A DNA stretch of 64,000 bases. Origin: Gemmatimonadota bacterium. GTDB taxonomy: Bacteria > Gemmatimonadota > Gemmatimonadetes > JACCXV01 > JAHWKZ01. The notes beneath the pieces were generated by a model, which saw only the letters and a program-made list of their open reading frames with translations, did no database searches and had not been told where the DNA came from. Every line of letters starts with the position of its first letter. Positions within the stretch are counted from its first letter, which is position 1. The translations under genes and the position numbers were made by a program. Positions 1,400 to 59,360 of this stretch are shown piece by piece. The stretch lies in contig JBHEOA010000176.1 of the NCBI GenBank assembly GCA_046261835.1, positions 8,588-72,587 on the forward strand, in the 5' to 3' direction.

Positions 1400-2782
1400 A
1401 TGAGAGCAAGCTGGAAGCGGACCGCCCGGGCTCTGGCCCTGGCGGTCCTGGTCAGCGGGACGGCTGCGTGCGACTGGCTCATCAGCCCGACGGAGTCGAA
1501 CCCGAACGTCGTCGCCGACGCGACGCTCGACCAGCTGTTCGTGTCGGTCCAGCTCAACGCGTGGTTCATCGCCGAGGGCGATCTGAGCCGCTTCGCGGCC
1601 GTGTGGCTGCAACAGATGGCCGGGATGCAGGACCGGCAGTTCGGGCTCATCCACAGCTACGACATCGTGGAGGACGACGGCGGCGACGCCTTCAACACCA
1701 CCTACACGGGCGGCGGCCTCGTCGACATCGTGCGGGCGATCGATCTGGCCACCGAGCGCCCCGAGGCGGCCGGCCGGGTGTACGCCGGGATCCTCAAGGT
1801 CCATCAGGCGTTCATGATCGGGACCATCGCGAGCGTCCATGGCGACGTTCCCTTCTCCGAGGCGGTCAACCCCGAGATCGCCGAGCCCGCGCTCGACGAT
1901 CAGGCGGCGGTCTACGCCGCGGTCCAGGCCCTCCTGGACGAAGCGATCGCCGACCTCCAGAGCGGGGAGGGCGCCGGCCCGGGCGCCATCGACTTCTCGT
2001 TCGGCGGCAACGCCGCACAGTGGGTCGCCGTGGCCAACACGCTCAAGGCGCGCTTCCACGCTCACTGGATGGAGACGGACCCGGGCCGAGCCGCGCAGGT
2101 TCTCGCCGCGGCCAACAGCGGGATCCGTACGGCTGCCGGCAACTGGCGCGCGCTCCACTCGACGACCGCGACCGAGCAGAATCTCTGGAACCAGTTCATG
2201 GGGGACCGCCCCAACTACATCCAGGCGGGCGCGTTCCTCGTCGACCTGCTCCTGGCGCGAGACGATCCGCGGGTCGCGAAGTACTACGAGCCGAACGCGG
2301 ACGGCGAGTTCGTCGGCAGCCCCGTCAACGAGGAAGACGTGACCGCGTCGAACCTGGCGCTATGCGCGGGATGTGCGGGCGCCCAGGATTTCGGCTTCGT
2401 GCTCGCCTCGTGCGAAGAGAACGCCGGGCTGGCGGCCGAGGCGGCTTTCCGGCAGGGGGGCGCGGCGGCGGCCCAGCCGTGGATCGACGAGCTGATCCAG
2501 TGCTCGTCCACGTTCTGGGGAGTCGACGTTCCCCCGGCCCAGCAGCCGCTCACGCTCGAGGAGATCATCCTCCAGAAGTACATGGCGCTGTTCCTGAGCC
2601 ATGAGATCTGGAGCGACTACAAGCGGACGTGCTTCCCGGCGGTCGAGACGTTTGCGGGGAGGGAGATCCCCCGGCGGCTCTACTACCCCTTCGCGGAGCG
2701 CCAGGCGAATACGAACGTTCCCGAGCCCGCGGAGCAGGACGCACAACCGTTCAATGACAACGACCCGAACCCCTGTCCGTAG
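1400..2782 (+). CDS. SusD/RagB-family nutrient-binding outer-membrane lipoprotein
   Basis: ATG is preceded by GGAGGAGG. The signal peptide has a lipobox (LVSGTAAC). The gene is about 460 aa and sits directly downstream of the SusC-like gene. Confidence 0.75.
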   Translation: MRASWKRTARALALAVLVSGTAACDWLISPTESNPNVVADATLDQLFVSVQLNAWFIAEGDLSRFAAVWLQQMAGMQDRQFGLIHSYDIVEDDGGDAFNTTYTGGGLVDIVRAIDLATERPEAAGRVYAGILKVHQAFMIGTIASVHGDVPFSEAVNPEIAEPALDDQAAVYAAVQALLDEAIADLQSGEGAGPGAIDFSFGGNAAQWVAVANTLKARFHAHWMETDPGRAAQVLAAANSGIRTAAGNWRALHSTTATEQNLWNQFMGDRPNYIQAGAFLVDLLLARDDPRVAKYYEPNADGEFVGSPVNEEDVTASNLALCAGCAGAQDFGFVLASCEENAGLAAEAAFRQGGAAAAQPWIDELIQCSSTFWGVDVPPAQQPLTLEEIILQKYMALFLSHEIWSDYKRTCFPAVETFAGREIPRRLYYPFAERQANTNVPEPAEQDAQPFNDNDPNPCP

Positions 2783-2789
2783 GAGGGGA

Positions 2790-3167
2790 TTCGGGGGTCC
2801 AGCCCTTCGCTCCATCCTGCCGGTCGCGCTGTCGCTCGTGGCGGCATGCGCGACCGGCGTCGGGGCGGAGCGCCCCGCCCACCAGATCGTGGTCGAAGTC
2901 GTCAACGACCTCGTCCCACCCCGAAGTGTGACGATCCAGATGCTGGCCAGCGATCGTGTCACCCGCACGTTGGGAACGGTGGGAGCCGGGGAGACGCGCA
3001 GATTCTCGTTCCGCGAGCGATTGCTCGGCGGGGCCTACCGCATGACGGCCCGGATCGATCAAGGGAACGAGATGGCCTCGGAGGTCTTCACGCTCTTTCC
3101 GAACGCGCACGTCTTCTGGGACCTGAGAAGGAACCTCCTGACGGTCGGATCGCAGGGAGGGATGTGA
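2790..3167 (+). CDS. small secreted lipoprotein of unknown function (start codon unresolved)
   Basis: Protein-like translation with lipoprotein signal ...ALRSILPVALSLVAACATG, stop TGA at 3165-3167. AGGAGG lies at 2781-2786, but there is no in-frame ATG/GTG/TTG upstream of the signal peptide. The only candidates are CTG at 2817 or ATC at 2814. The alternative frame (2846 ORF) is Arg-rich junk. Confidence 0.45.
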   Translation, partial: FGGPALRSILPVALSLVAACATGVGAERPAHQIVVEVVNDLVPPRSVTIQMLASDRVTRTLGTVGAGETRRFSFRERLLGGAYRMTARIDQGNEMASEVFTLFPNAHVFWDLRRNLLTVGSQGGM

Positions 3168-3613
3168 GCCGCCTCGGGATCCTCGCGGTGGGATGCCTCG
3201 CCGTCGCCGGGTCGGCCTGCTACCGCTACACTCCCGTCGAGACGGACGCCCCGATCGAGCGCGGGAGGGCGATCCGTGCGTGGCTCGAGCGCCCGACGGA
3301 CGTCCGGCTGACCGAGCTCACCGCGAACGGGGCCCGCGAGGTGCGCGGCGAGGTGATCGGCTGGCGGGGCGACTCGCTGGCTCTGTCGGTCTTCTGGGTG
3401 GTGACGCAGACCCAGTACGAGCATCGGGGTCGGGGCGAGACCGTCCTGATCGCCGGCGACAACATCGCCCGGCTGGAGAAGAAGGAGATCGACCCCGCGC
3501 GCACCGGCGGCTTGACCGCCGGGATCGTCGCCCTGACGGCGGCCGCGGGCTATGCCGTTTCCGGGGGCGGCGGCGGAGACGAGGGCGACAACGGGGGAAT
3601 CCCGCCCCAGTAG
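3164..3613 (+). CDS. small secreted lipoprotein of unknown function
   Basis: GTG at 3164 overlaps the upstream stop (GTGA). Signal VSRLGILAVGCLAVAGSAC has a lipobox. The C-terminus is Gly-rich. Confidence 0.5.
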   Translation: MSRLGILAVGCLAVAGSACYRYTPVETDAPIERGRAIRAWLERPTDVRLTELTANGAREVRGEVIGWRGDSLALSVFWVVTQTQYEHRGRGETVLIAGDNIARLEKKEIDPARTGGLTAGIVALTAAAGYAVSGGGGGDEGDNGGIPPQ

Positions 3614-3634
3614 ATGGCGAGGAGGTCCGAGCCC

Positions 3635-5023
3635 ATGCTGGTGCGACAGGTCAAGACGAGGAATATCGCGTCGGCCTTCGTCGTAGGGCTTCTGCTGGCG
3701 GCGTGCGGCGGTCGCGACCTCGGCGAGAGCCCGGGCGCGGCGCTCGACGCCGAGCTCCTCCAGCTCATGAGCCGCGCTTCGGAGACCGGCGATCCCTCCT
3801 GGTTCGCGCTTCCCTCCCCCGACGAGTACGACCGGATCCCGCAGGATCCCAAGAACCCCTTGACGCGTGCCAAGGTCGAGCTGGGGCGGCTCCTGTTCCA
3901 CGATACGGCGCTCGAACGCGATCCGAGGCTGCCGCCCGGCGCGGGCAGGGTTTCGTGCGCGAGCTGCCACTTCGCCCAGGCGGGCTTCCAGGCGGGCATC
4001 CCCCAGGGAGTCGGAGAGGGGGCGTTCGGTTTCGGCCGCCGCGGCGAGCAGCGACGGATCGACGACAGCTATCCGCCCGATTCGGTCGACGTTCAGGCGT
4101 TCCGGACCCCGACCGTCCTCAACATAGCCTTCCAGATCGTCCTGGGCTGGTCGGGACAATGGGGCGCGGTGGGCCCCAACGTGGGGACCAAGTACTCGTG
4201 GATGGGGGGAGCGGCCCCGAACCGGCTAGGCTTCCAGGGCGTCGAGTCGCAGGCGATCGCCGCCCTCGACACCCACGGCCTCTCCGTAGAGGACGGCTTC
4301 TTCGACGAGCTGCCCGAATACCGGCGGCTCTTCGACGAGGCTTTTCCCGAGGTTCCCGAGTACCGGCGGTACACCGACCGTGTGGCGGCCCTGGCGATCG
4401 CGGCCTACCAGCGCACGGTTCTGACCAACCAGGCGCCCTTCCAGCGCTGGCTGCGGGGGGACCGGAGCGCCATGGCCACCCCCGAGAAGCGGGGGGCGGT
4501 CCTGTTCTTCGGCGAGGCCGGCTGCGTCACGTGCCACACGGGGCCCGCCCTCAACTCCATGCAGTTCGCCGCGCTCGGCATGAACGACCTGTATGACCGT
4601 CCCGACGTGATCGCTCCCTCGCATGCTCCGGACTCGCTGGCGCGCCGCGGTCGCGGAGGGTTCACCCGGCGGCCGGACGACGACTACGCCTACAAGGTCC
4701 CCCAGCTCTACAACCTCGCCGATTCGCCCTTCTACGGGCACGGAGCCTCCTTCACCAGCGTGCGCGAGGTCGTCGAGTACAAGAACCGCGCGGCGCCGCA
4801 GAAGCCGATTCCACGCGAGCGACTCGCGCCGGAGTTCCGGCCGTTGGGGCTGGACGACGGAGCGGTCACCGCGATCGTCACCTTTCTGAGCCGTAGCCTG
4901 CAGGATCCGAACATCGTCCGGTACGTACCGTCGAGCGTGCTTTCCGGCCGCTGCTTCCCCAACGACGACCCTCAGTCCCGGCTCGATCTCGAATGCCCGC
5001 CTCTCGAGACCACCTCGCGGTGA
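3635..5023 (+). CDS. di-heme cytochrome c peroxidase (CCP/MauG family), lipoprotein
   Basis: Two CxxCH heme motifs (CASCH, CVTCH). The size and spacing are typical of bacterial di-heme CCP. ATG at 3635 has GAGGAGG 9 nt upstream, and there is a lipobox (LLLAACGG). An alternative ATG lies at 3614. Confidence 0.85.
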   Translation: MLVRQVKTRNIASAFVVGLLLAACGGRDLGESPGAALDAELLQLMSRASETGDPSWFALPSPDEYDRIPQDPKNPLTRAKVELGRLLFHDTALERDPRLPPGAGRVSCASCHFAQAGFQAGIPQGVGEGAFGFGRRGEQRRIDDSYPPDSVDVQAFRTPTVLNIAFQIVLGWSGQWGAVGPNVGTKYSWMGGAAPNRLGFQGVESQAIAALDTHGLSVEDGFFDELPEYRRLFDEAFPEVPEYRRYTDRVAALAIAAYQRTVLTNQAPFQRWLRGDRSAMATPEKRGAVLFFGEAGCVTCHTGPALNSMQFAALGMNDLYDRPDVIAPSHAPDSLARRGRGGFTRRPDDDYAYKVPQLYNLADSPFYGHGASFTSVREVVEYKNRAAPQKPIPRERLAPEFRPLGLDDGAVTAIVTFLSRSLQDPNIVRYVPSSVLSGRCFPNDDPQSRLDLECPPLETTSR

Positions 5024-6711
5024 GGCGGGCGGCGGGTCTCGGCGCGGCCATCGCAGGGCTGGTCCTCGGCGGGTCCCCCGCCCTGGCGCAGGGATTCGAC
5101 GAGGTGGGCCGCGAGGCCGGGATCGACCACGTGGCCGTCGACCCCCACCGGATCGCGGGCGGGGTCGCCTTCTTCGACTACGACGGTGACGGCGACGACG
5201 ACCTGTGGCTCACGGGCGGGCGGAACCCCGATCGCCTCTACCGGAACCGTGGCGACGGCACGTTCGATGACGTCACCGAGGCGGCGGGCCTCGGCTTCCT
5301 CGCCGACATACCGACCGTCGGCGTCGTCACCGGCGACATCGACAACGACGGCGATCGCGACGTCTTCGTCACCACCTTCGAGGGATATCCCAACATCCTC
5401 CTGCGCAACGAGGGGGACGGCACCTTCACCGACGTCTCGGAAGCAGCGGGCGTGGCCGGGCCGCCGGTCTGGAGCACGGCGGCGGCCTTCGGCGACTACG
5501 ACCTCGACGGCTTCCTCGACCTCTACGTCGGCAACTACGCCACCTACGACGACCTGCCGTACGACGAGCACTTGACCGGCGGGATCCCCAACTTCCTCTA
5601 CCGCAACCGCGGCGACGGCACGTTCGAGGACGTCGCCGAGCGGCTCGGCGTGGACGATCCGGACGGCCTCGCGCTGGCAGTGGCGTTTACCGACTACGAC
5701 GGCGATGCCGACGTCGACATCTGGGTGGCCAACGACTTCGGGTACCTCTTCGAGGAGGACAAGCTCTACCGGAACGACGGGGGCCGCTTCGTCGAGGTGG
5801 GGGAGGAGCTGGGGGTCGACAACGAGATCAACGCCATGGGGATCGCCGCCGGCGACTATGACGAGGACGGCGACCTCGATTACTACGTCACCAACATGGC
5901 CCGGAACCGGCTGCACGAGAACCTCCAGCGCGGCCACGCGAGCGGGGAAGGAAGCGGTCGCTTCGTCGACGTCGCCCGCCAGAAGGGCCTGGACGACGAG
6001 TGGGCGACGAGCTGGGGGGCGGTGTTCGCCGACGTCGACAACGACGGGCACCTCGATCTGCTGCTGGCCAACGGGCGCGTGCTGCCGAGCTACAACATGG
6101 AGTACATGGACCACCTCCATCGGCTGGTGGAGCCGCACGCGAATCGCTTGTGGCGCGGTGACGGGAAGGGCGGCTTCGTGGAGGTTGCGAGCGAGATGGG
6201 GGTCGCCGACACGACGCGCGGACGCGGTCTCGCCTGGTCCGACATCGACGGTGACGGCGACGTCGACCTCGCGGTTTCGGTACTCGTTGTCGAGGGGCCG
6301 ACGATGGACCATGCGCTGCTGTACCGGAACGAGGGCCACCCCGGCCGCAATTGGCTCAACGTGCGGCTCCGAGGCACGTCGGCCAACCGGGACGCCTTCG
6401 GGAGCCGGGTGCGGGTCGTCGCGGCCGAACGCAGCCTGATCCGCGAGATCGACGGCGGATCGAGCTACCTCTCACAAAGCTCCAGCGTCGCCCACTTCGG
6501 TTTGGGCTCGCGCGCTGTCGCCGACAGCCTGGTCGTCACGTGGCCCGGCGGGAAGATCGAGGTCCTGACCGACCTTCCGGTGAACCGGACCGTCGAGATC
6601 GTCGAAGGTGTTCTGGCGGCGGGAGAACCGGCGCCCGAGACGCCGGGAAGCGAGTCGTGGGGCAAGACGCCGGCTGCCGAACCCGCCGAGCGGCGCCGGG
6701 TCGAGCCCTAG
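5020..6711 (+). CDS. FG-GAP/VCBS-repeat protein with C-terminal ASPIC/UnbV domain (CRTAC1-like), secreted
   Basis: Repeated FxDxDGDGxxD calcium-binding FG-GAP motifs. The C-terminus (...NWLNVRLRG...GSRVRV...SSYLSQSS...FGLG) is typical of ASPIC/UnbV. GTG at 5020 overlaps the CCP stop (GTGA) and gives a signal peptide. An alternative ATG is at 4993. Confidence 0.8.
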   Translation: MRRAAGLGAAIAGLVLGGSPALAQGFDEVGREAGIDHVAVDPHRIAGGVAFFDYDGDGDDDLWLTGGRNPDRLYRNRGDGTFDDVTEAAGLGFLADIPTVGVVTGDIDNDGDRDVFVTTFEGYPNILLRNEGDGTFTDVSEAAGVAGPPVWSTAAAFGDYDLDGFLDLYVGNYATYDDLPYDEHLTGGIPNFLYRNRGDGTFEDVAERLGVDDPDGLALAVAFTDYDGDADVDIWVANDFGYLFEEDKLYRNDGGRFVEVGEELGVDNEINAMGIAAGDYDEDGDLDYYVTNMARNRLHENLQRGHASGEGSGRFVDVARQKGLDDEWATSWGAVFADVDNDGHLDLLLANGRVLPSYNMEYMDHLHRLVEPHANRLWRGDGKGGFVEVASEMGVADTTRGRGLAWSDIDGDGDVDLAVSVLVVEGPTMDHALLYRNEGHPGRNWLNVRLRGTSANRDAFGSRVRVVAAERSLIREIDGGSSYLSQSSSVAHFGLGSRAVADSLVVTWPGGKIEVLTDLPVNRTVEIVEGVLAAGEPAPETPGSESWGKTPAAEPAERRRVEP

Positions 6712-9024: not shown

Positions 9025-12000
9025 ATGTTGTCCCGCGACTTGAGACTCCCTCACCTTCGCTCTCTCGGCTGGAGCGCGGCCGCCTGGGTTTTCTTCTGTC
9101 CGCCGGCTGCGGCCCAGGTGGCTCCCGACCACGCCTGGCGGACGGTCGAGACCGCTCACGTCCGCGTCACGTATCCCGCCCCCCGCGATTCGCTGGGAGA
9201 GCGAACTGCGCGCGCGGCCGAGCGGGCGTGGGAGGGATTGGCCCGGCTGGCGCCGCCGCCGGGGGGGCGGGTCGAGGTCGTCCTATCCGACGACGTGGAC
9301 GTCGCCAACGCATTCGCCTCGGTTTCCCCCTATCCCTGGATCGTGGTCTACGTCCACCCCCCCTATGACAACCTCGACCTGGCCGAATACTCCGATTGGC
9401 TCGAGGTCGTCCTGGCCCACGAGATGGCCCACATCGTCCACCTCGACCAGGCGCGCGGGCTCGGCCGCTTCCTGCGGCAGATCTTCGGTCGAATCCCGGC
9501 CGCGGGTTGGCCGCTGTTCCCGCACGTCACCACACCGACCTGGACGATCGAGGGGCTGGCGGTCCGGTACGAGACCGCGCTGACGGGAAGCGGCCGGCTC
9601 GCGGGGACGGTCACGGAGATGATCGTCCGGGCCGCGGCGGTCGAGGACGAGATCCCCGATCTCGGGTTCGTGACCGGCGATCCCGCGGTGTGGCCGGCCG
9701 GGAACACGCGCTACGCCTTCGGCGGCGAGTTCCTCGGCTGGCTGGCCGCGCGGCACGGCGACGAAGCGTTCGAGCAGTACGTCCGGGAGCTCGCGGGCGA
9801 CCCGCTCCCGTTCCGCGTCGATCGCGCCGCCGAGCGCGCATTCGGCGTCACGTTCTCGGATGCGTGGGAGGCGTGGCGGGTCGAGGCGACCGCGCGCAAT
9901 CGAGCGGCGGCCGACTCGCTGGCGCGCGTCGCTCCGCTCACCCGTGCCGAGCGGCTCATGAACCACGCATACTGGGCGCTCTGGCCGCGCTGGTCCCCCG
10001 ACGGCGCGACGATCGCCTACGCCGCGTACGACGGCCGCCGCGACGTCCACCTGGCGCGGATCGACGCCGGGTCGGGCGCGGAGATCGGCTCGACCCGCGT
10101 ACCGGGTCTGGGGGTGCCCTCGTGGCGATCCGACGGATCGCTGGTCGTGGGCGGCTTCCAGTGGCAGGGGCCCTATCGCCGGTGGGACGACCTTTGGGTC
10201 ATCCCCGGCGAGGGGCCGGCGCGACCGCTGACCGACGCGGCGCGCCTCTCCCATCCCGATGTCGGCCCCGGCGGGGCGATCGTGGCGGTCCAGACGGAGG
10301 CCGGCACCAATCGGCTGGTCGTGCTGGAGCCCGGGAACGGCGAGCCACGGGCGGTCACGGCGCTCGATGCCGGCGTTCACTGGGCATGGCCGCGCTGGTC
10401 TCCCGACGGATCGCGAATCGCGGTCTCGCGGTGGCGCGGCAGGGGCTTCGACGTCGTGGTTCTCGACCCCGCCGGCGGGCTGGAACGCGAAATCGCGGCC
10501 GACGGAGCGCTGAACCTCGCCCCTGCCTGGTCCCCCGACGGCGGGTGGCTCGTCTTCGGATCCGACCGGACCGGGATCGCCAACCTCTACGCCTTCGATC
10601 TCGGGGGGCGCCGCGGGCTCCGCCAGGTTACCCATGTTGGCGGGGGCGCGTTCTTCCCGGACGTCTCACCCGACGGGCGCTGGATCGCCTTCGCCGGCTA
10701 TCACCACGACGGCTGGGCGATCGAGCGTGTGCCGTTCGATCCGGCGGCATGGTTCGACCCCCACCCGGCACGAGACGCGAGCATCCCACGCGCGTGGAGC
10801 GCTGCATCTACCGGGAGTCTCGCGGCGGCCCCCTCCGACGTTCTGCCATCCCGCCGCAAGCAGGAACCGATCCACGTTTCGGTGCCGCGCCCCTACGCGC
10901 CGTGGCCCACCCTGGTGCCGCGCTACTGGCTCCCGATCGTGGAAGCCGGCGAGGAGGTGCGGGGAAGGGAGCTCCTCGGCCCCGGCGTCGGCGCGGCCAC
11001 GTCCGCCGTCGACGCGGTCGGGCGTCACGCGTACGGGGCGGCCTCCACGGTCGACGTGGAGCACGGTCGGGTCGAGGCCTTCGTCCGGTACAGGAATGCG
11101 GTGCTCGGTCGCCCGATCCTCGATCTCACGGCCGCTCAGACCTGGGAGTTCGCGGGGTTCGCCTTGCCGGCTTCGGAGGAGGAGACGGCGCAGCCGGGCG
11201 ATACCCTGTTCGCTCTCGGACGCAACCGCGAGATCGCTCTCTTTGCCACCATCCCCTTCCGTCATCCCTTTCGCTCCGCGACGCTCGCGATGGGGGCGGG
11301 GTTGCTCGAGGAGCGCCTCGTCCTGCTCGAGCCCGATCTCACGGAGAGCCGCCGGTTCCGCCTCGACGACCCCAGGGCGCTCCTTCCCGAGGCGTTTGGT
11401 TCGGGGACCTTCTCGACCGCGCGCACCTTCGCCTTCTCGATCAGCCCCGAGAACGGCATCGCGGGCTCGGCCAGGGGGGAGTGGCGCTTCGACCCGGCCG
11501 AGGAGAATCGCGCTCGCCGCGAGGCGACCGCGCAGGTCGCGGTCTACCGGGCGCTCGGGCGACCGTGGGGGTTCGCGCGCACGGTGGCGGCCCTCCGCGC
11601 GAGCGGCGGAGTGGTGCGGGGGCTCGGTGCGGGCGATGGCCACTTCGCGCTCGGCGGAGCGAGCGGCGAAGGGCTTGGGGTCGCAGGGTTGACCGGCCTG
11701 GGCGCGCAACGGTTCCTGCTCCCGGTGCGTGGGTACGTCCGCGGCGAGCGGCGCGGCCGTACGGCGTGGTCGGCGAGCGCCGAGATCCGCTTTCCGCTCG
11801 CGCTGCTCCAGAAGGGATGGGGGCTCCGGCCGCTCTTCCTCGACCGGCTGGCGGGGACGGTCTTCGTCGACGCCGGCGATGCCTGGGATCCGTGCCGCCC
11901 CGGCGCGGAGTGCACCGCGTCGCTGGAGCCTCTCGTGTCGAGCGGCGTGGAGCTGCTCCTCGATGTGACCGTCTTCTACCGGCTGCCTCTCACGCTGCGG

Positions 12001-22376: not shown

Positions 22377-22592
22377 ATGCCTCGCAAGAAGACCTGTCAC
22401 TTCTGCGAAAGCAAGGTCTCGATCGACTACAAAGACGAAATGCTCCTTCGCCGATTCACCAACGATCGTGGCAAGATCTTGCCGCGGCGGGTCAGCGGAA
22501 CTTGCGCCAAGCACCAACGGGAGCTGGCGGTGTCGATCAAGCGGGGGAGGTTTTTAGCCCTGATCCCTTACGTCCCCGACCACGCCGGGTAG
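22377..22592 (+). CDS. rpsR: 30S ribosomal protein S18
   Basis: [13 protein letters not shown]...DYKD...LRRF is the canonical S18 sequence. Confidence 0.9.
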
Positions 22593-22594
22593 GT

Positions 22595-22713
22595 GGGCCG
22601 CTGAAATTGACGAATCTCTGCGTTGCGTTTCGTCGGCCTCCCTGCGGCGTAGGATTTCCTACGCCTCGGGAAGCCTCCTCGCGCGCCTTGACCTTCGTCA
22701 ATTTGAGCGGCCC
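22595..22713 (+). repeat. structured intercistronic repeat element, copy A (about 119 nt, closed by an 18-bp stem)
   Basis: 5' arm GGGCCGCTGAAATTGACG pairs with 3' arm CGTCAATTTGAGCGGCCC. The interior carries conserved ATCTCTGCGTTGCG...CGTCGG, a hairpin GCGTAGGA-TTT-CCTACGC, and CGCGCGCCTTGACCT. Two further copies are at 39409 and 43468. Confidence 0.6.
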
Positions 22714-22788
22714 ACCGCGGTACTGGGGCCATCCCTTCGCGTGGTTGGGGACATGATCGCACCGTCGCGGTCGCGGGGAGGTGAGTTC

Positions 22789-24871: not shown

Positions 24872-27800
24872 GTGGTGGCGTTTCTTTTGCTGCTGCCGAG
24901 CCCGGCGTCACCCCAGTTCGGCAAGAACAAAGTCCAGTACCAAGCGTTCGACTTCCGCGTTCTCGAAACCGACCACTTCCACATCTACTACTATCCCGAA
25001 GAGGAAGCGGCGGTCATGGACGCCGCGCGGATGGCCGAGCGCGGGTACGCCCGGCTCGCCAAGGTCTTCCGCCATCAGTGGGACGAGAAGAAGCCGCTGA
25101 TCCTCTACGCGTCGCAGTCCGATTTCCAGCAGACCAACATCTTCAGGTTCCAGCTCGACGAAGGGATTCAGGGCGTCACCGAGGGGCTGCGGAACCGCAT
25201 CGTCCTGTTCTTCCCGAGCGCCTATCCCGACTTCGATCATACCCTCACCCACGAGCTGGTCCACGCGTTCCAGTACGACATCATGCGGCGGGGGGCGCTG
25301 TCGCAGGGGAATCACCCCTTCGCCTTCCGGCCGCCGCTCTGGTTCCTGGAGGGGATGGCCGAATACCTCTCCACCGGGGAGATCGACGCCCAGACCGCGA
25401 TGTGGCTGCGAGACGCCTCGCTGTCGGGGTACCTCACCTCGCTCGATGAGCTCTCGAGCGTCGGCGACATCCGCGTTTATCGCTTCGGCCAGGGGATCTG
25501 GTACTACGTCGGCACCAAGTACGGCGACGAGAAGATCGGGGAGATCATGCAGAAGGCTCCGCTCGTCGGTGTGGACGAAGCCTTCAAGGACGTGATCGGG
25601 TTGACGCTTGAGGAGCTGTCGGACGACTGGCTCGAGGCGGTCCGCCTCACGTATTTCCCCCAGGCGCTCGCCTTCCAGCCTGCACAGAGTGTCGCGGAGC
25701 GACTCACATCTCACGTCCGCGAGCGAACCTCCATCAACATCGCGCCCGCGGTCTCGCCCGACGGCAGACGCGTAGCTTTCCTCTCCGATCGCGACTACTT
25801 CAACGATCTCTACGTCGCCGACCTCGACGACCCGTCGAACCCCGACAAGCTCGTCAAGGGCGAGCGAACCGCGTCCTTCGAAAGCCTGCGGTTCCTGCGC
25901 GCCGGCGTGGCCTTCTCGCCGGACGGCGAGTACCTCGCCTTCTCGAGCAAAGCGGGTGAACAGGACGCCCTCTACATCATGCACGTGGACGACGAGGAGA
26001 TCGTGGCCGTCCATCGCTTCGGCCTGGAGGGGATCGAAACTCCCTCCTGGTCCCCCGACGGGGAGCGACTCGTCTTCACCGGGCTAGAGGGAGGAACGAG
26101 CGACCTCTTCGTCGTCGGCCGCGAAGGAACCGACCTTCGGCGGCTGACCCACGACCGCTTCGGTCAGCGCGACCCGACGTGGTCGCCGGACGGGGGCCGA
26201 ATCGCTTTCACGACCGAGTTCGGACCGGGGACGGATTTCGAACTGCTGGCGTATGACGATTACAAGATCGGTATTCTCGACCTCGCGTCGGGCGGAATCA
26301 CCTATGTCCCGGATCAGGCCGGCCGCAACATCAATCCTCAGTGGGGGCCGGAGGGTCGAACGCTGGCCTACGTGTCGGACCGGACCGGGATCGCCAACAT
26401 CTTCCTCTATGATTTCGATCGCGGGACCCACCATCAGCTGACCGATCTCCTCACCGGGGTCAGCGGAGTGACCGAGACGAGCCCGGCGCTTTCCTGGTCG
26501 CGCGACGGTCGCACGATGGTCTTCAGCGCCTTCGCTGACGCGGGCTGGGACCTCTACCGGCTCGACGATCCGCTCGCGCTCGTCCGCGAGCCGTACGTGT
26601 CGCGGGCCGAGTCGGAGTTCGACCTCGCGGCGAGCGTGTTCGTGCCGGAGGACGAGGAGCGGCCCGCCGACGTGACATCGTCACCGGGCGGCGCCGGACC
26701 CGGCGCGGCGAACGGCGACAAGCCGGCCGGGTCGCAGACGACCGAGGTCAGCACGGTCGGCCGGCGTCCCGATCCCTTTGGGATTCCCCTGGACGAGCGC
26801 CGACCGCGCCGGGCGGAGCGGCCGCCCATGCGCATCCCCTCATTCGAGGATCCGGTGGACGTGCCGACGCTCCTCGAGGATCCGACCCTCGGGTTGCCGC
26901 GCGATACCAGCACCTACGAGATCCGACCCTACGAGATCGAGTTCCAGCCCGACATCATCGCCCAACCGGAGGTCGGCTTCGTCACCGGTCTGGGCGCGTT
27001 CGGTGCTTCGCAGCTGGCTTTCAGTGATCTGCTCGGGGATCACAACCTGTACGTTGCGGCTTCGGTCTACGGATCGGTGACCGACAGCGATCTGTTCTTC
27101 ACCTACGCGAATCTCAGGCGACGCCTCAACTGGGGTGCGAGCGCGTTCCAGTTCCGGAGCGACTTCGCCCCGCTGGCGGTGAGCTCGGTCGACGATGTCA
27201 CTCTGCTCTACCGAAGCGACGTCTATCGCGGCGGACAGCTGTTCGGCGCGTATCCCTTGAGCCGCTTCCGACGCGTCGAGTTCGGCGCGGTCGCGGCCTA
27301 TGTCGACCGCCGAATCGCAAAATTCGAGGTGTTCGCCGCCGCGCCGGAGATCGAGGAAGACCTCCCCGACCAGGGGTTCGCCGCGCCTTCCGCGGCTTAC
27401 GTGTACGACACGGCGTACTACGGTTCTACCGGTCCGGTGGGGGGGAGCCGTCAGCGCCTCGAAGTCCAGCGTGCGTTCGGCGACCAGGCGTTCACACAGC
27501 TCTACGGCGACGTGAGAAGCTACTGGCTGCTCCGCCGCGACTTGACGCTGGCGAGCCGTCTCCTGTTCCTCGGGGTATACGGTCAGCACGCGGAGAACCT
27601 GCGGTTTCAGTCGATCGGCGGTCCGACGCTGCTTCGCGGCTACGAGTTCCGCGATCCTAAGCTGCGGGGTACGGAGGTCGGCCTCCTCAACGTCGAGCTC
27701 CGCTTCCCGATCGCCGACCGTCCCCACATTGCCGGCGCGCTCTTCCCGCCGCTGCGCGGAGCATTGTGGTTCGACCTCGGGTACGCGCGTTGTTCGGGCA

Positions 27801-38858: not shown

Positions 38859-39407
38859 ATGGCCTTCGTGGCGAAGGAGCTCTTCCTGACCCGCGGCGTC
38901 GGCCGGCATCGCGAGAAGCTGGCCTCGTTCGAGCTCGCGCTGCGCGACGCGCAGATCGCCGAATACAACATCGTGCGGGTCTCGAGCATCTTCCCCCCGG
39001 GATGCAAGCTTATTCCGATGAAGGAAGGCGTGAGGAAACTGACAGCGGGCCAGGTCCTGTTCACGGTGGTCGCGGAGTCGTCGACCGACGAACCCCACCG
39101 GCTGATCGCCTCGTCCATTGGCGTGGCGATCCCACGCGACGAGACGCACTACGGCTATCTCTCGGAACACCACTCTTACGGCCAGACCGACGAGGAAGCG
39201 GGCGACTACGCTGAGGACCTCGCCGCGCAGATGCTTGCCACCGTGCTCGGTGTCCAGTTCGATCCCGATGCCGCGTGGGATGCGCGGAAGGAAGTGTGGC
39301 GAATCTCCGAGGAGATCGTTACGACGCGCAACATCACGCAGTCGGCGGTGGGGGAGAAGAGTGGGTTGTGGACCACAGTAGTCGCCGCCGCTGTCCTGAT
39401 AGACTGA
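38859..39407 (+). CDS. pdaD: pyruvoyl-dependent arginine decarboxylase
   Basis: AGGAGG Shine-Dalgarno. About 180 aa. VRVSSIFPPG contains the Ser-Ser self-cleavage site typical of PdaD. Confidence 0.8.
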   Translation: MAFVAKELFLTRGVGRHREKLASFELALRDAQIAEYNIVRVSSIFPPGCKLIPMKEGVRKLTAGQVLFTVVAESSTDEPHRLIASSIGVAIPRDETHYGYLSEHHSYGQTDEEAGDYAEDLAAQMLATVLGVQFDPDAAWDARKEVWRISEEIVTTRNITQSAVGEKSGLWTTVVAAAVLID

Positions 39408-39408
39408 C

Positions 39409-39526
39409 GGCCGCTGAAGATGGCGCATCTCTGCGTTGCCCTTCGTCGGACTTCATTGCGGCGTAGCCCATACTACCCCTCATTCGTCCTCCTCGGGCGC
39501 CTTGATCTGCGCGATCTTGAGCGGCC
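39409..39526 (+). repeat. structured intercistronic repeat element, copy B
   Basis: 5' arm GGCCGCTGAAGATGGCGC pairs with 3' arm GCGCGATCTTGAGCGGCC. It shares ATCTCTGCGTTGC...CGTCGG and CGGGCGCCTTGATCT with copies A and C. It lies between pdaD and the speB GTG at 39589. Confidence 0.6.
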
Positions 39527-39588
39527 TTCCTGATGACGTTGGCGGTCTTGACCCGCCTTCCCTTCTCTCTCATCAGAATGCTCTTGAT

Positions 39589-40455
39589 GTGAACTTTCTG
39601 GGGTTGAGTGACGAGGAGACGCGGTACGAGGCGTGTCGTGGGGTCGTGGTGCCGGTGCCGTACGAGGCTACCGTATCGTACGGTGGAGGCACGGCGCGGG
39701 GGCCGGCGGCGATCCTCGAGGCTTCGGGGTACGTCGAGCTGTACGACGAGATCCTGCGCGAGGAGCCGTACCGGAAAGGCGGCATCCACACCCACGCCGC
39801 AGTCGAAGCCGGTCCGGACGAGGGTGCGGAAAGCTTCATCGACCGTCTCACGGAGGTCGCATCTCGTCTCTATGCCGACGACAAGTTCCCGATCTTTCTC
39901 GGAGGTGAGCACACGATCACCACCGGTCCTGTCCGCGCCGCCCGGGCGGCGTACGAGGATCTCTCGGTCCTCCAGTTCGACGCCCACGCCGATCTTCGCG
40001 ACCGTTATCAGGAGACCCCATGGTCCCACGCCTGCGTCATGCGGCGTGTGTTCGAGCTCGGGGTCTGGATCGTGCCGATCGGAATCCGCGCCGTGTCGGT
40101 GGAGGAGGCGGAGTTCATCCGCGAGGAGGACCTGCCCGTCTTCTGGTCGCATCGCATCGCCCACGGCGGCGGATGGATGGAGACCGCGCTGGCCGCCCTG
40201 ACCGACAACGTCTACGTCACGTTCGACGTGGACTTCTTCGATCCGGCCGTCATGCCCGCTACGGGGACGCCCGAGCCCGGCGGCGGGTCCTGGCACGAGA
40301 CCCTGCACTTCCTGGGGAAGGTGTTCCAGCAGAAGCGCGTCGTGGGGATGGACGTCGTCGAGCTCGCGCCGATCACCGGTCTCCACGCGCCCGATTTCGT
40401 CGCCGCGCGGCTGGTTCACCGCGCCTTCGGCTACAGGTTCCACGACTGGGGGTAG
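39589..40455 (+). CDS. speB: agmatinase (arginase-family ureohydrolase)
   Basis: GTG start gives N-terminus MNFLGL...VVVPVPYEATVSYGGGTARGPAAILEAS. Mn-ligand motifs GGEHTIT, DAHADL and DVDFFDP. Confidence 0.85.
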   Translation: MNFLGLSDEETRYEACRGVVVPVPYEATVSYGGGTARGPAAILEASGYVELYDEILREEPYRKGGIHTHAAVEAGPDEGAESFIDRLTEVASRLYADDKFPIFLGGEHTITTGPVRAARAAYEDLSVLQFDAHADLRDRYQETPWSHACVMRRVFELGVWIVPIGIRAVSVEEAEFIREEDLPVFWSHRIAHGGGWMETALAALTDNVYVTFDVDFFDPAVMPATGTPEPGGGSWHETLHFLGKVFQQKRVVGMDVVELAPITGLHAPDFVAARLVHRAFGYRFHDWG

Positions 40456-43467: not shown

Positions 43468-43619
43468 GAGGCGGCTGAAAACGGCGAATTCTCTGCGTTG
43501 CGTTCCCTCGGCCTTCCTGCGGCGCACATTTCAGTGCGCCTCGGATGACCTCAGTCGCGCGCCTTGATCTTCACCGTTTTGAGCCGCCTCGAGTGACCTC
43601 GGTCATTTTGAGCGGCGCC
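43468..43619 (+). repeat. structured intercistronic repeat element, copy C (core 43468-43590 plus a partial duplicate of the 3' arm to 43619)
   Basis: 5' arm GAGGCGGCTGAAAACGG pairs with 3' arm CCGTTTTGAGCCGCCTC. Internal TTCTCTGCGTTGCG, hairpin GGCGCAC-ATTTCA-GTGCGCC, and CGCGCGCCTTGATCT. An extra CATTTTGAGCGGCGCC follows. Confidence 0.6.
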
Positions 43620-59226: not shown

Positions 59227-59360
59227 GACGCGGCGTGGGGGAAGGTCCCGACGAGACGTTAAAACTCGGTCGAAGTTGGCAAGGCAGGAATGAGTACCGC
59301 GATCGGGATCTTAGAAGGCCCACGGCAGCGTCTCGTCGGGGCCTTCCCCCACGACGCTTC
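59227..59360. repeat. large imperfect inverted repeat (about 32-bp arms, about 70-nt AT-richer loop) between convergent genes
   Basis: Core arms GGGGGAAGGTCCCGACGAGACG (59237-59258) and CGTCTCGTCGGGGCCTTCCCCC (59329-59350) with one mismatch. Flanking partial complementarity extends the arms. It ends 4 nt from the carD stop. Confidence 0.5.

Follow-up and report, generated by a model that had tools for sequence, protein, structure and literature searches.

In this study, we found that the 118-nt hairpin separating pdaD from speB in a Gemmatimonadota genome is probably a mobile-element insertion. The hairpin, designated copy B, lies in a 64,000-nt stretch of contig JBHEOA010000176.1, and this whole stretch is referred to as the window. 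Copy B is best explained as a selfish, non-autonomous, hairpin-forming element of the MITE (miniature inverted-repeat transposable element) or REP (repetitive extragenic palindrome) type, which inserted on the pdaD stop codon in an ancestor of this Gemmatimonadota lineage. We assign this reading a probability of roughly 0.7. The insertion would have widened a pdaD-speB junction of 3-16 nt to 181 nt, and the element would serve itself and not polyamine metabolism. The original prediction, made from the letters of the window, had described a structured repeat copy that splits the pdaD-speB pair, and had suggested that it could modulate speB relative to pdaD, by attenuation, differential mRNA stability or a metabolite- or protein-responsive switch. 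The structural part was confirmed, including the coordinates of the hairpin and of the 62 nt that follow it and the identities of both genes. The regulatory interpretation is largely unsupported, and nothing points to a dedicated or ligand-responsive device. Loci other than the window that were sampled for the element or for close pdaD relatives carry L-numbers. The features of the junction are as follows.

38859-39407, + strand: pdaD, pyruvoyl-dependent arginine decarboxylase (Pfam PvlArgDC, E = 5e-60), with the stop codon TGA at 39405-39407
39405-39409, + strand: TGACG, left copy of a possible 5-bp target-site duplication, stop codon included; the right copy is at 39534-39538
39409-39526, + strand: copy B, long hairpin GGCCGC...GCGGCC of 118 nt (fold, covariance model at 92.6 bits, alignment)
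39427-39439, + strand: left core half ATCTCTGCGTTGC of copy B
39460-39481, + strand: apical hairpin of copy B, GGCGTAG...CTACCCC (alignments)
39497-39508, + strand: right core half GCGCCTTGATCT of copy B, not the complement of the left half
39527-39588, + strand: 62-nt stretch from the hairpin to speB
39589-40455, + strand: speB, agmatinase/arginase family (Pfam Arginase, E = 1e-62), with a GTG start

The 181-nt spacer of the window consists of the hairpin, which begins 1 nt past the pdaD stop, and then the 62-nt stretch. We compared this junction with those of relatives. As had been predicted, pdaD and speB are normally tightly linked. The alleles found at this site were the following.

L130, L131 and L122: empty junctions, with spacers of 3, 7 and 16 nt
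Window: filled junction, 181-nt spacer
L129 (88% PdaD identity): filled junction, 178-nt spacer
L126 (87% PdaD identity): filled junction, stop codon TAG
L127 (98% PdaD identity): filled junction, contig ends within the element
L121/L124: left-arm remnant of 40 nt, directly abutting the speB start
L128: left-arm remnant of 44 nt, directly abutting the speB start

Since relatives show spacers of 3-16 nt, diverged full copies or left-arm remnants, the element is a lineage-specific insertion. L130 and L053 come from one metagenome-assembled genome (MAG), which carries the element behind rho and none at pdaD. The outer stems of the L129 and window copies differ by fully compensated changes (GAAGATGGCGCA/TGCGCGATCTTGAG versus GAAAACGGCCGA/TCGGCCGTTTTGAG). 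PdaD homologues in Gemmatimonadota are nearly all 182 aa long and most end in ...AAAVLID; the pdaD stop is therefore native and not supplied by the element. We also considered that the element had truncated pdaD, since removal of 134 nt would let the pdaD frame run on to a TGA overlapping the speB GTG. This was rejected, as PdaD has 182 aa with and without the element. Two loci were discarded as orthologous pdaD copies: the element of L053 sits behind rho, and that of L052 behind a different open reading frame (ORF) ending in ...YWFPID.

Several further observations concern the history of individual copies. Between L127:875-905 and window 39408-39438, the left arms are about 70% identical, and the two pdaD genes are 95% identical in nucleotides (87% at third codon positions). 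Five of the six arm differences are C/G swaps. Because the arm is far more diverged than pdaD and differs mostly by such swaps, the comparison suggests that the L127 arm may have been replaced by another copy, through gene conversion or re-insertion, and not altered by point mutation. Copies also lie directly behind rho in two Gemmatimonadota genomes whose rho genes are 83% identical in nucleotides (L024:3558-3636 and L053:3860-3937). Their outer arms are unrelated, their cores are identical and their interiors are similar, so that either the insertion was retained for long while its arms turned over, or the site was hit more than once. The L053 rho gene (2579-3840) appears frameshifted and is covered by two ORFs in different frames, probably owing to an assembly error. 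The metagenome contigs L125, L126 and L127, with near-identical pdaD genes, end at or inside the element, and the element breaks short-read metagenome assemblies. Another contig, L106, begins at positions 1-11 with TCTTCCGATCT, which is Illumina-adapter-like and fused to an element copy. The window pdaD contains the rare codon ATA where relatives use ATC.

The structure of copy B was then predicted from the fold and from an alignment with the two other window copies, A and C, and 75 copies of other genomes. On the + strand, the RNA folds at -55.8 kcal/mol (z = -3.4), and none of 200 shuffled sequences was as stable. The outer stem P1 is formed by GGCCGCTGAAGATGGCGC / GCGCGATCTTGAGCGGCC, and its pairing possibly reaches the GA of the stop codon (39406-07) and a UC at about 39528-29. 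The apical hairpin shows compensatory changes among copies A, B and C (TAG/CTA versus CAC/GTG). Whether the 62-nt stretch at 39527-39588 is part of the element is uncertain. It cannot be aligned with the orthologous L129 copy past GCGGCCTTCC, and a small hairpin within it, GGCGG-TCTTGAC-CCGCC (39541-39557), looks like a second right arm. The hairpin is a repeat, as had been claimed: the covariance model found exactly three copies in the window, at 92-99 bits, and the next-best match scored 16 bits. All three are on the + strand, each 0-4 nt past a stop codon. The two further copies are these.

About 22593-22715, + strand: copy A (99.1 bits), directly past the rpsR stop TAG at 22590-22592 and upstream of a DUF2232 gene
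About 43468-43590, + strand: copy C (94.4 bits), 2-4 nt past the stop TAG (43463-65) of a DsbD_TM/ccdA-like gene

Directly past copy C, an extra partial right arm, GTGACCTCGGTCATTTTGAGCGGCG, was found at 43591-43619; it resembles the second right arm of other subfamilies. L122 has no sequence alignable with copy C at the corresponding site, where 35 nt separate the ccdA-like gene from the next called gene.

We next examined the distribution of the element by scanning one genome per species with the pattern TCTCTGCGTTGC-N45-70-GCGCCTTGA. At least 118 loci in genome contigs matched, six of which were obvious false positives in coding sequence; about seven matches would be expected by chance, as an estimate. 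The covariance model gave 110 matches within the sampled loci. By record title, the true matches among those listed belong to nine phyla, namely Gemmatimonadota, Desulfobacterota (including Geobacter), Myxococcota, Bdellovibrionota, Bacteroidota/Rhodothermota, Pseudomonadota, Bacillota, Dormibacterota and Patescibacteria, a count that may be inflated by mis-binned MAG contigs. Five isolate genomes are among the carriers, and the isolates include Geobacter, Geothermobacter, Marinicella and Brevibacillus. Carriers with complete genomes include Geobacter sp. AOG1, G. hydrogenophilus, Marinicella pacifica, Brevibacillus sp. SYSU BS000544 and chromosome OW818699.1. Some record titles do not agree with the copies: L016, L040 and L080 ('Hyphomicrobiales MAG256', with Desulfobacterales-type copies), L012 and L028 ('Rhodothermales') and L049 ('Alphaproteobacteria') carry subfamilies otherwise found in Desulfobacterales or Gemmatimonadota. 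These may be mis-binned contigs or cases of recent transfer.

Members at more than 110 sampled loci share one architecture, 118-170 nt long, with several copies per genome elsewhere. An outer arm is followed by the left core A-TCTCTGCGTTGC, a variable second stem, the apical hairpin (GCGTAC-loop-GTACGC in most members), the right core GCGCCTTGA-YCT and the other outer arm. The outer arms, about 20-22 nt each, pair with each other in essentially every copy, with double compensatory changes at 19 of 25 consensus pairs, and their sequence is wholly different between lineages. The core, with the family consensus ATCTCTGCGTTGC...GCGCCTTGA(T/C)CT, comprises about 25 nt, is asymmetric and near-invariant, and reads 5'-ATCTCTGCGTTGC...GCGCCTTGAYCT-3' on the sense strand of the gene. 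Its two halves are not complementary, so that, lying opposite each other, they form an internal loop that is conserved and rich in mismatches. No conserved ORF is present in the element, and the core-to-core spacing of 45-70 nt takes every value modulo 3. Core conservation is partly ascertainment, as the search pattern demands exact cores. Three observations nevertheless argue that it is genuine: the flanking A and YCT, outside the pattern, are near-invariant; the remainder of the element has diverged beyond recognition; and 11 further copies that the covariance model picked up despite their inexact cores retain GCGT(T/C) and CCTTG. Divergent copies show covarying core variants (TGC/GCG to CAG/CTT; UC.CU to UU/AA), and CCTTG is present in all of them.

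The family looks undescribed in Rfam and in the literature that was searched. No Rfam 15 family matched the window at the gathering score; copy B gave only chance-level hits at E <= 10, and 12 loci with diverse copies gave none at E <= 1. Searches of the literature by sequence and by keywords did not find the core sequence, and the family is not listed in a MITE review or in a REP survey (PMC3733652). Plasmid sequences contained no meaningful matches. Viral contigs contained only two, L119 and L120 (IMG/VR), with identical flanking sequence. In these viral or prophage contigs, a full copy lies directly past an 80-aa ORF that is excisionase- or helix-turn-helix-like by appearance, and L120 has a left-arm-only remnant past a stop at about 887-905. 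Such contigs are a possible vehicle for horizontal spread.

Evidence for mobility was obtained from target-site duplications. One Desulfobacteraceae subfamily has perfect termini, GAGACCTTTG...CAAAGGTCTC, and exact 5-bp direct repeats in 5 or 6 of 8 copies (GTTCT, GGGAT, GACAC, GAACC, GTTAC, GATAC). The main Desulfobacterales subfamily has 6-bp repeats, including AAATTT, AGCGAT, AATGAT/C, AAGAAT and ACCGGT, and Paludibacter copies have AT-rich repeats of about 8 bp. In many subfamilies, the main hairpin is followed by a short linker and then by an imperfect repeat of the right arm; the duplications of the Desulfobacterales copies lie outside the whole composite of main hairpin, linker and second right arm. 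A metagenome scan yielded a variant (L164, L198, L250) with the same terminal repeats, GATGACTTCGTAAAAAG..., 6-bp duplications and a longer linker, in which the core module can be read in reverse complement as CAAGGCGC...GCAACGCAG. L203:506-640 has the same terminal repeats and 6-bp duplications around an unrelated interior. From the composition of these four loci, termini and core behave as separable modules. Lysobacterales copies form tandem clusters. The TGACG repeat at copy B fits the 5-6 bp duplications of other subfamilies, with the limit that one 5-mer may match by chance. Thus the family has the MITE features of small, non-coding, multi-copy units with terminal inverted repeats, fixed-length duplications and site polymorphism. 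A cognate autonomous insertion sequence or transposase with the same termini was not seen in the 2-14 kb around copies, which is a weak negative. Movement of the element would depend on an enzyme that acts in trans and cuts its target with a stagger.

The insertions are concentrated at stop codons. Among the 109 copies with enough flank, and counting ORFs of at least 80 codons, 57 have a same-strand stop 17-31 nt before the left core, i.e., at the base of the outer stem. The mirror-image interval contains 5 opposite-strand stops versus these 57 (p = 3e-12). The distance from stop to left core is exactly 20 nt in 19 copies, and the first paired base is offset from the stop by -4 to +4 in 35 of 72 copies. 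TGA is used 38 times, TAG 19 times and TAA 15 times. The upstream genes are more than 50 unrelated housekeeping genes, including rho, rpsR, sufB, argG, carA, aroC, rseP, ftsX and lolE, and the commonest arrangement is gene, element and gene on one strand (31 cases). In several target sites, the stop lies inside or adjoins the duplication: L105 ACCGGT|TGA, L103 AAGAAT|AA, L021 TTGAAG, L050 TTAAGC, L085 TAAATAGT and TGACG at copy B. This targeting could not be explained by sequence preference alone. The segments L052:150-175 and window 39396-39420, from copies behind different genes, are alike at about 23 of 25 nt, with a common 10 nt before the arm, ATAGACTGAC. The L052 ORF ends in ...KATYWFPID, where an outer-membrane-type YWF end may have gained PID. 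This likeness hints at sequence-directed targeting or at flank carry-over.

We then compared the folding of the two strands. The strand antisense to the abutting gene is the more stable one in 109 of 116 copies, with means of -61.9 versus -51.5 kcal/mol under RNA parameters, and in 112 of 116 under DNA parameters. When both core halves were forced to be unpaired, a difference of 9.2 kcal/mol was still observed. With the cores masked, the antisense stems contain 352 G.U pairs versus 136 in the sense stems. The bias is present in 17 of 19 sequence clusters. For copy B, the - strand folds at -62.5 kcal/mol (z = -4.7) versus -55.8 on the + strand. The antisense core loops are purine-rich and contain tandem G.A mismatches. 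As the antisense strand folds better, the structure is not tuned for the pdaD-speB mRNA. Almost every copy shows the bias irrespective of its genomic context, so that it belongs to the element itself and does not stem from selection in the local host. These results argue that the single-stranded bottom strand, as DNA or RNA, matters for the element, and the mobilising enzyme would recognise the conserved mismatched core in that folded strand. The GC skew is positive on the + strand at this locus, which is thus presumed to be the leading strand. A lagging-strand-template model of single-stranded DNA, as for IS200/IS605, fits poorly with this, since the better-folding strand would lie on the presumed leading-strand template.

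The strand bias also raises the question of whether the bottom strand yields a functional product. Such a product might be a small structured RNA; alternatively, the hairpin might keep antisense transcription that begins downstream from running into the gene. The fold that is better by about 10 kcal/mol, the excess of stem G.U pairs, the purine-rich loops with tandem G.A mismatches (read from the sequence as typical of structured RNAs) and a 3' end placed exactly at the gene end would all fit such a product. However, no promoter-like motif was found on that strand near copy B, visual inspection of the main subfamily's short linker showed none, and no U-tract follows the hairpin. In the 31 all-same-strand cases, no known gene transcribes that strand. 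The same asymmetry under DNA parameters means that single-stranded DNA explains the bias equally well. We consider a bottom-strand product quite unlikely.

An RNA intermediate was weighed on partly the same evidence. In this scheme, which resembles the spread of short interspersed nuclear elements (SINEs), reverse transcription of a bottom-strand RNA would start at a nick made in the stop codon. A strand-specific G.U excess would be in keeping with an RNA that has to fold, and a reverse transcriptase might recognise a conserved interior enclosed by closing stems that vary. The junction is precise at the stop codon, several copies are truncated down to their stop-proximal part (L121/L124, L128 and the remnant at about L120:887), and no transposase was seen in cis. 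Against these points, the duplication length is constant per subfamily (5, 6 or about 8 bp), as is typical of DDE transposases. Fragments retaining the right side also exist (L043, L203 and the tail of copy C), and no reverse transcriptase was found nearby. To our knowledge, retro-mobility of this kind has no precedent in bacteria. This scheme is very improbable.

We next returned to the proposal that copy B regulates speB. The speB start at 39589 aligns with the ATG or GTG of relatives, followed by AAC-TTT-CTS-GG (ATG-AAC-TTT-CTC in some); the start codon is GTG in the window and L128, and ATG in L121, L129 and L122. No Shine-Dalgarno sequence is recognisable before speB in the window or in relatives with spacers of 3-40 nt; AGGAGG precedes pdaD. 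In relatives with spacers of 3-16 nt, speB would most simply be translated by coupling to pdaD. If pdaD and speB form one unit, the element is co-transcribed with them, and a stable hairpin then stands 62 nt before a GTG that has no obvious Shine-Dalgarno sequence. Together with the strongly conserved core, this could suggest a dedicated cis-regulatory RNA (an attenuator, a riboswitch or a protein-binding switch) that sets speB relative to pdaD. However, the same element lies behind dozens of unrelated genes in about nine phyla, and the pdaD-speB junctions of close relatives include filled, decayed and empty ones. Neither a promoter motif nor an expression platform was found in the region, and 39300-39700 contains no terminator, in the form of a GC-rich hairpin with a U tract, on either strand. 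The better structure of the antisense strand, the target-site duplications of family members and the lack of an Rfam match contradict this proposal further. We regard a dedicated switch for speB as scarcely credible. An incidental effect on speB, through lost translational coupling or altered mRNA decay, is possible.

A related explanation accepts the mobile origin. The element may have been exapted for a general mRNA role between cistrons or at 3' ends, in the manner of REP, ERIC or Correia repeats: it would shield the upstream cistron from 3'-5' decay, slow termination or ribosome release or provide an RNase site, and so change the pdaD:speB ratio. The stable hairpin beginning 1 nt past the stop, the strong preference for sense orientation to the upstream gene and the compensatory changes that keep the pairing at orthologous sites agree with this. 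ERIC and Correia hairpins change mRNA stability, and Liang, Rudd and Deutscher (2015) reportedly found that a REP at most 15 nt from a stop lowers translation of the upstream gene in Escherichia coli. A generic stabiliser, however, needs no invariant 25-nt core common to nine phyla, the mRNA strand is the weaker folder in 109 of 116 copies, and the element decays freely in sister lineages. Exaptation is thus unlikely as the explanation of copy B. Under insertion of a selfish element, similar consequences would arise as side effects: a stable hairpin would lie flush with the pdaD stop, and speB would lose the short distance to that stop through which its translation was probably coupled to that of pdaD. 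As by-products, it would be reasonable to expect that SpeB is made in smaller amounts or under different control, or that the pdaD cistron decays differently.

Several results weigh against a selfish MITE/REP-type insertion. The duplication at copy B is a single 5-mer only. Core and pairing are kept in orthologous copies over substantial divergence (rho in L024/L053; pdaD), and this could reflect host-level selection. The conserved interior with variable termini is the reverse of what is expected of a classical DDE-type MITE, and neither core half is an inverted copy of the other. Double-stranded cut-and-paste transposition does not account for the strand-specific G.U/G.T excess. The phylum count may be inflated by mis-binning, as noted above. 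No transposase was found near the approximately 118 sampled loci, a weak negative given the 2-14 kb covered around copies, and a metagenome scan with the terminal repeat and an 'anti-core' filter returned only non-autonomous variants and no autonomous element. Likewise, all-against-all clustering of the ORFs of 120 loci gave only housekeeping paralogues and no recurrent protein near the element. None of the convergent downstream ORFs is a transposase, and searches of the loci for solo left or right cores kilobases apart and with terminal-arm probes gave only chance matches and remnants.

We compared the element with known systems. Hairpin MITEs, such as Correia/NEMIS of Neisseria, ERIC/IRU of enterobacteria, RUP/BOX/SPRITE of pneumococcus and Chunjie of Geobacter, are likewise non-coding, multi-copy and about 120-170 bp long. 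They share complementary termini, target-site duplications and insertion polymorphism, and they insert within operons without destroying them, with a possible side effect on mRNA stability or processing. However, each is restricted to a genus or family, whereas the core of the present element is near-identical in about nine phyla. The present element also differs in its variable termini and invariant asymmetric internal core, in its insertion at stops in one orientation, in its strand-biased fold and in that no parent insertion sequence was found. REP and REPIN sequences (RAYT, Y1 HUH) are similar as extragenic palindromes that are sometimes tandem, often lie beside stops and are recognised as folded single strands. 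GTAG-type REP termini are reported to supply TAG stops to flanking ORFs (PMC3733652). The REP unit is 20-40 nt long with a GTAG/CGTC tag and no target duplication, in contrast to about 120 nt, untagged lineage-variable ends and duplications of 5-8 bp.

The integron attC site is also an imperfect palindrome (57-141 nt) past or overlapping an ORF stop in fixed orientation, with variable stems and conserved asymmetry, and its bottom strand is the active folded form. Identity with attC was rejected, as R'' (RYYYAAC) and R' (GTTRRRY) are absent by eye on both strands, and GTTGCGC and GATCAAG fit neither. Moreover, attC sites occur in cassette arrays, whereas the present element lies behind housekeeping genes scattered round the chromosome, with target duplications. 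Tn7 at attTn7 past glmS shares orientation-specific insertion just past a stop, a 5-bp duplication and asymmetric ends. It uses one gene end via TnsD and has ends beginning with TGT, whereas dozens of unrelated gene ends and differing termini are found here. IHF sites, K-turns, hammerhead and hairpin ribozymes and pC194-type nick sites were rejected, since the defining motif was absent by eye.

Other repeats of the window were also inspected. No solo arm hairpins that could serve as insertion targets were found in the window above chance. An unrelated inverted repeat at 59227-59360 has 32-nt arms that are 91% complementary and 70 nt apart. The direct-repeat families D1-D3 (5159-6269, 9989-10557 / 25911-26524) are repeats within the coding sequence of large ORFs, of FG-GAP/VCBS-like (DGDGD motifs) and beta-propeller-like (WSPDG) appearance, and have no relation to the element.

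Taken together, the apparent regulatory element at pdaD-speB is better treated as an insertion scar, and operon and regulation predictions should handle it accordingly. The element separates translationally coupled genes in many genomes. In Rfam and the searched literature, we did not find described together a 25-nt core that is nearly identical from Gemmatimonadota to Bacillota and Patescibacteria, arms that are free to vary, landing on stops in one orientation (in about half of copies) and a one-strand folding preference. It is conceivable, though doubtful in our view, that core and inner hairpin form the recognition module of an undescribed kind of mobile element, one that acts through the folded antisense strand, homes to stops in fixed orientation, is shared horizontally across at least nine phyla and has arms that need only to pair. 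If true, this would imply an enzyme with structure-specific recognition and stop-codon-directed integration. If an enzyme is responsible, it would recognise a folded nucleic acid and place DNA at gene ends, and would be of interest for mobile-element biology and for tool building.

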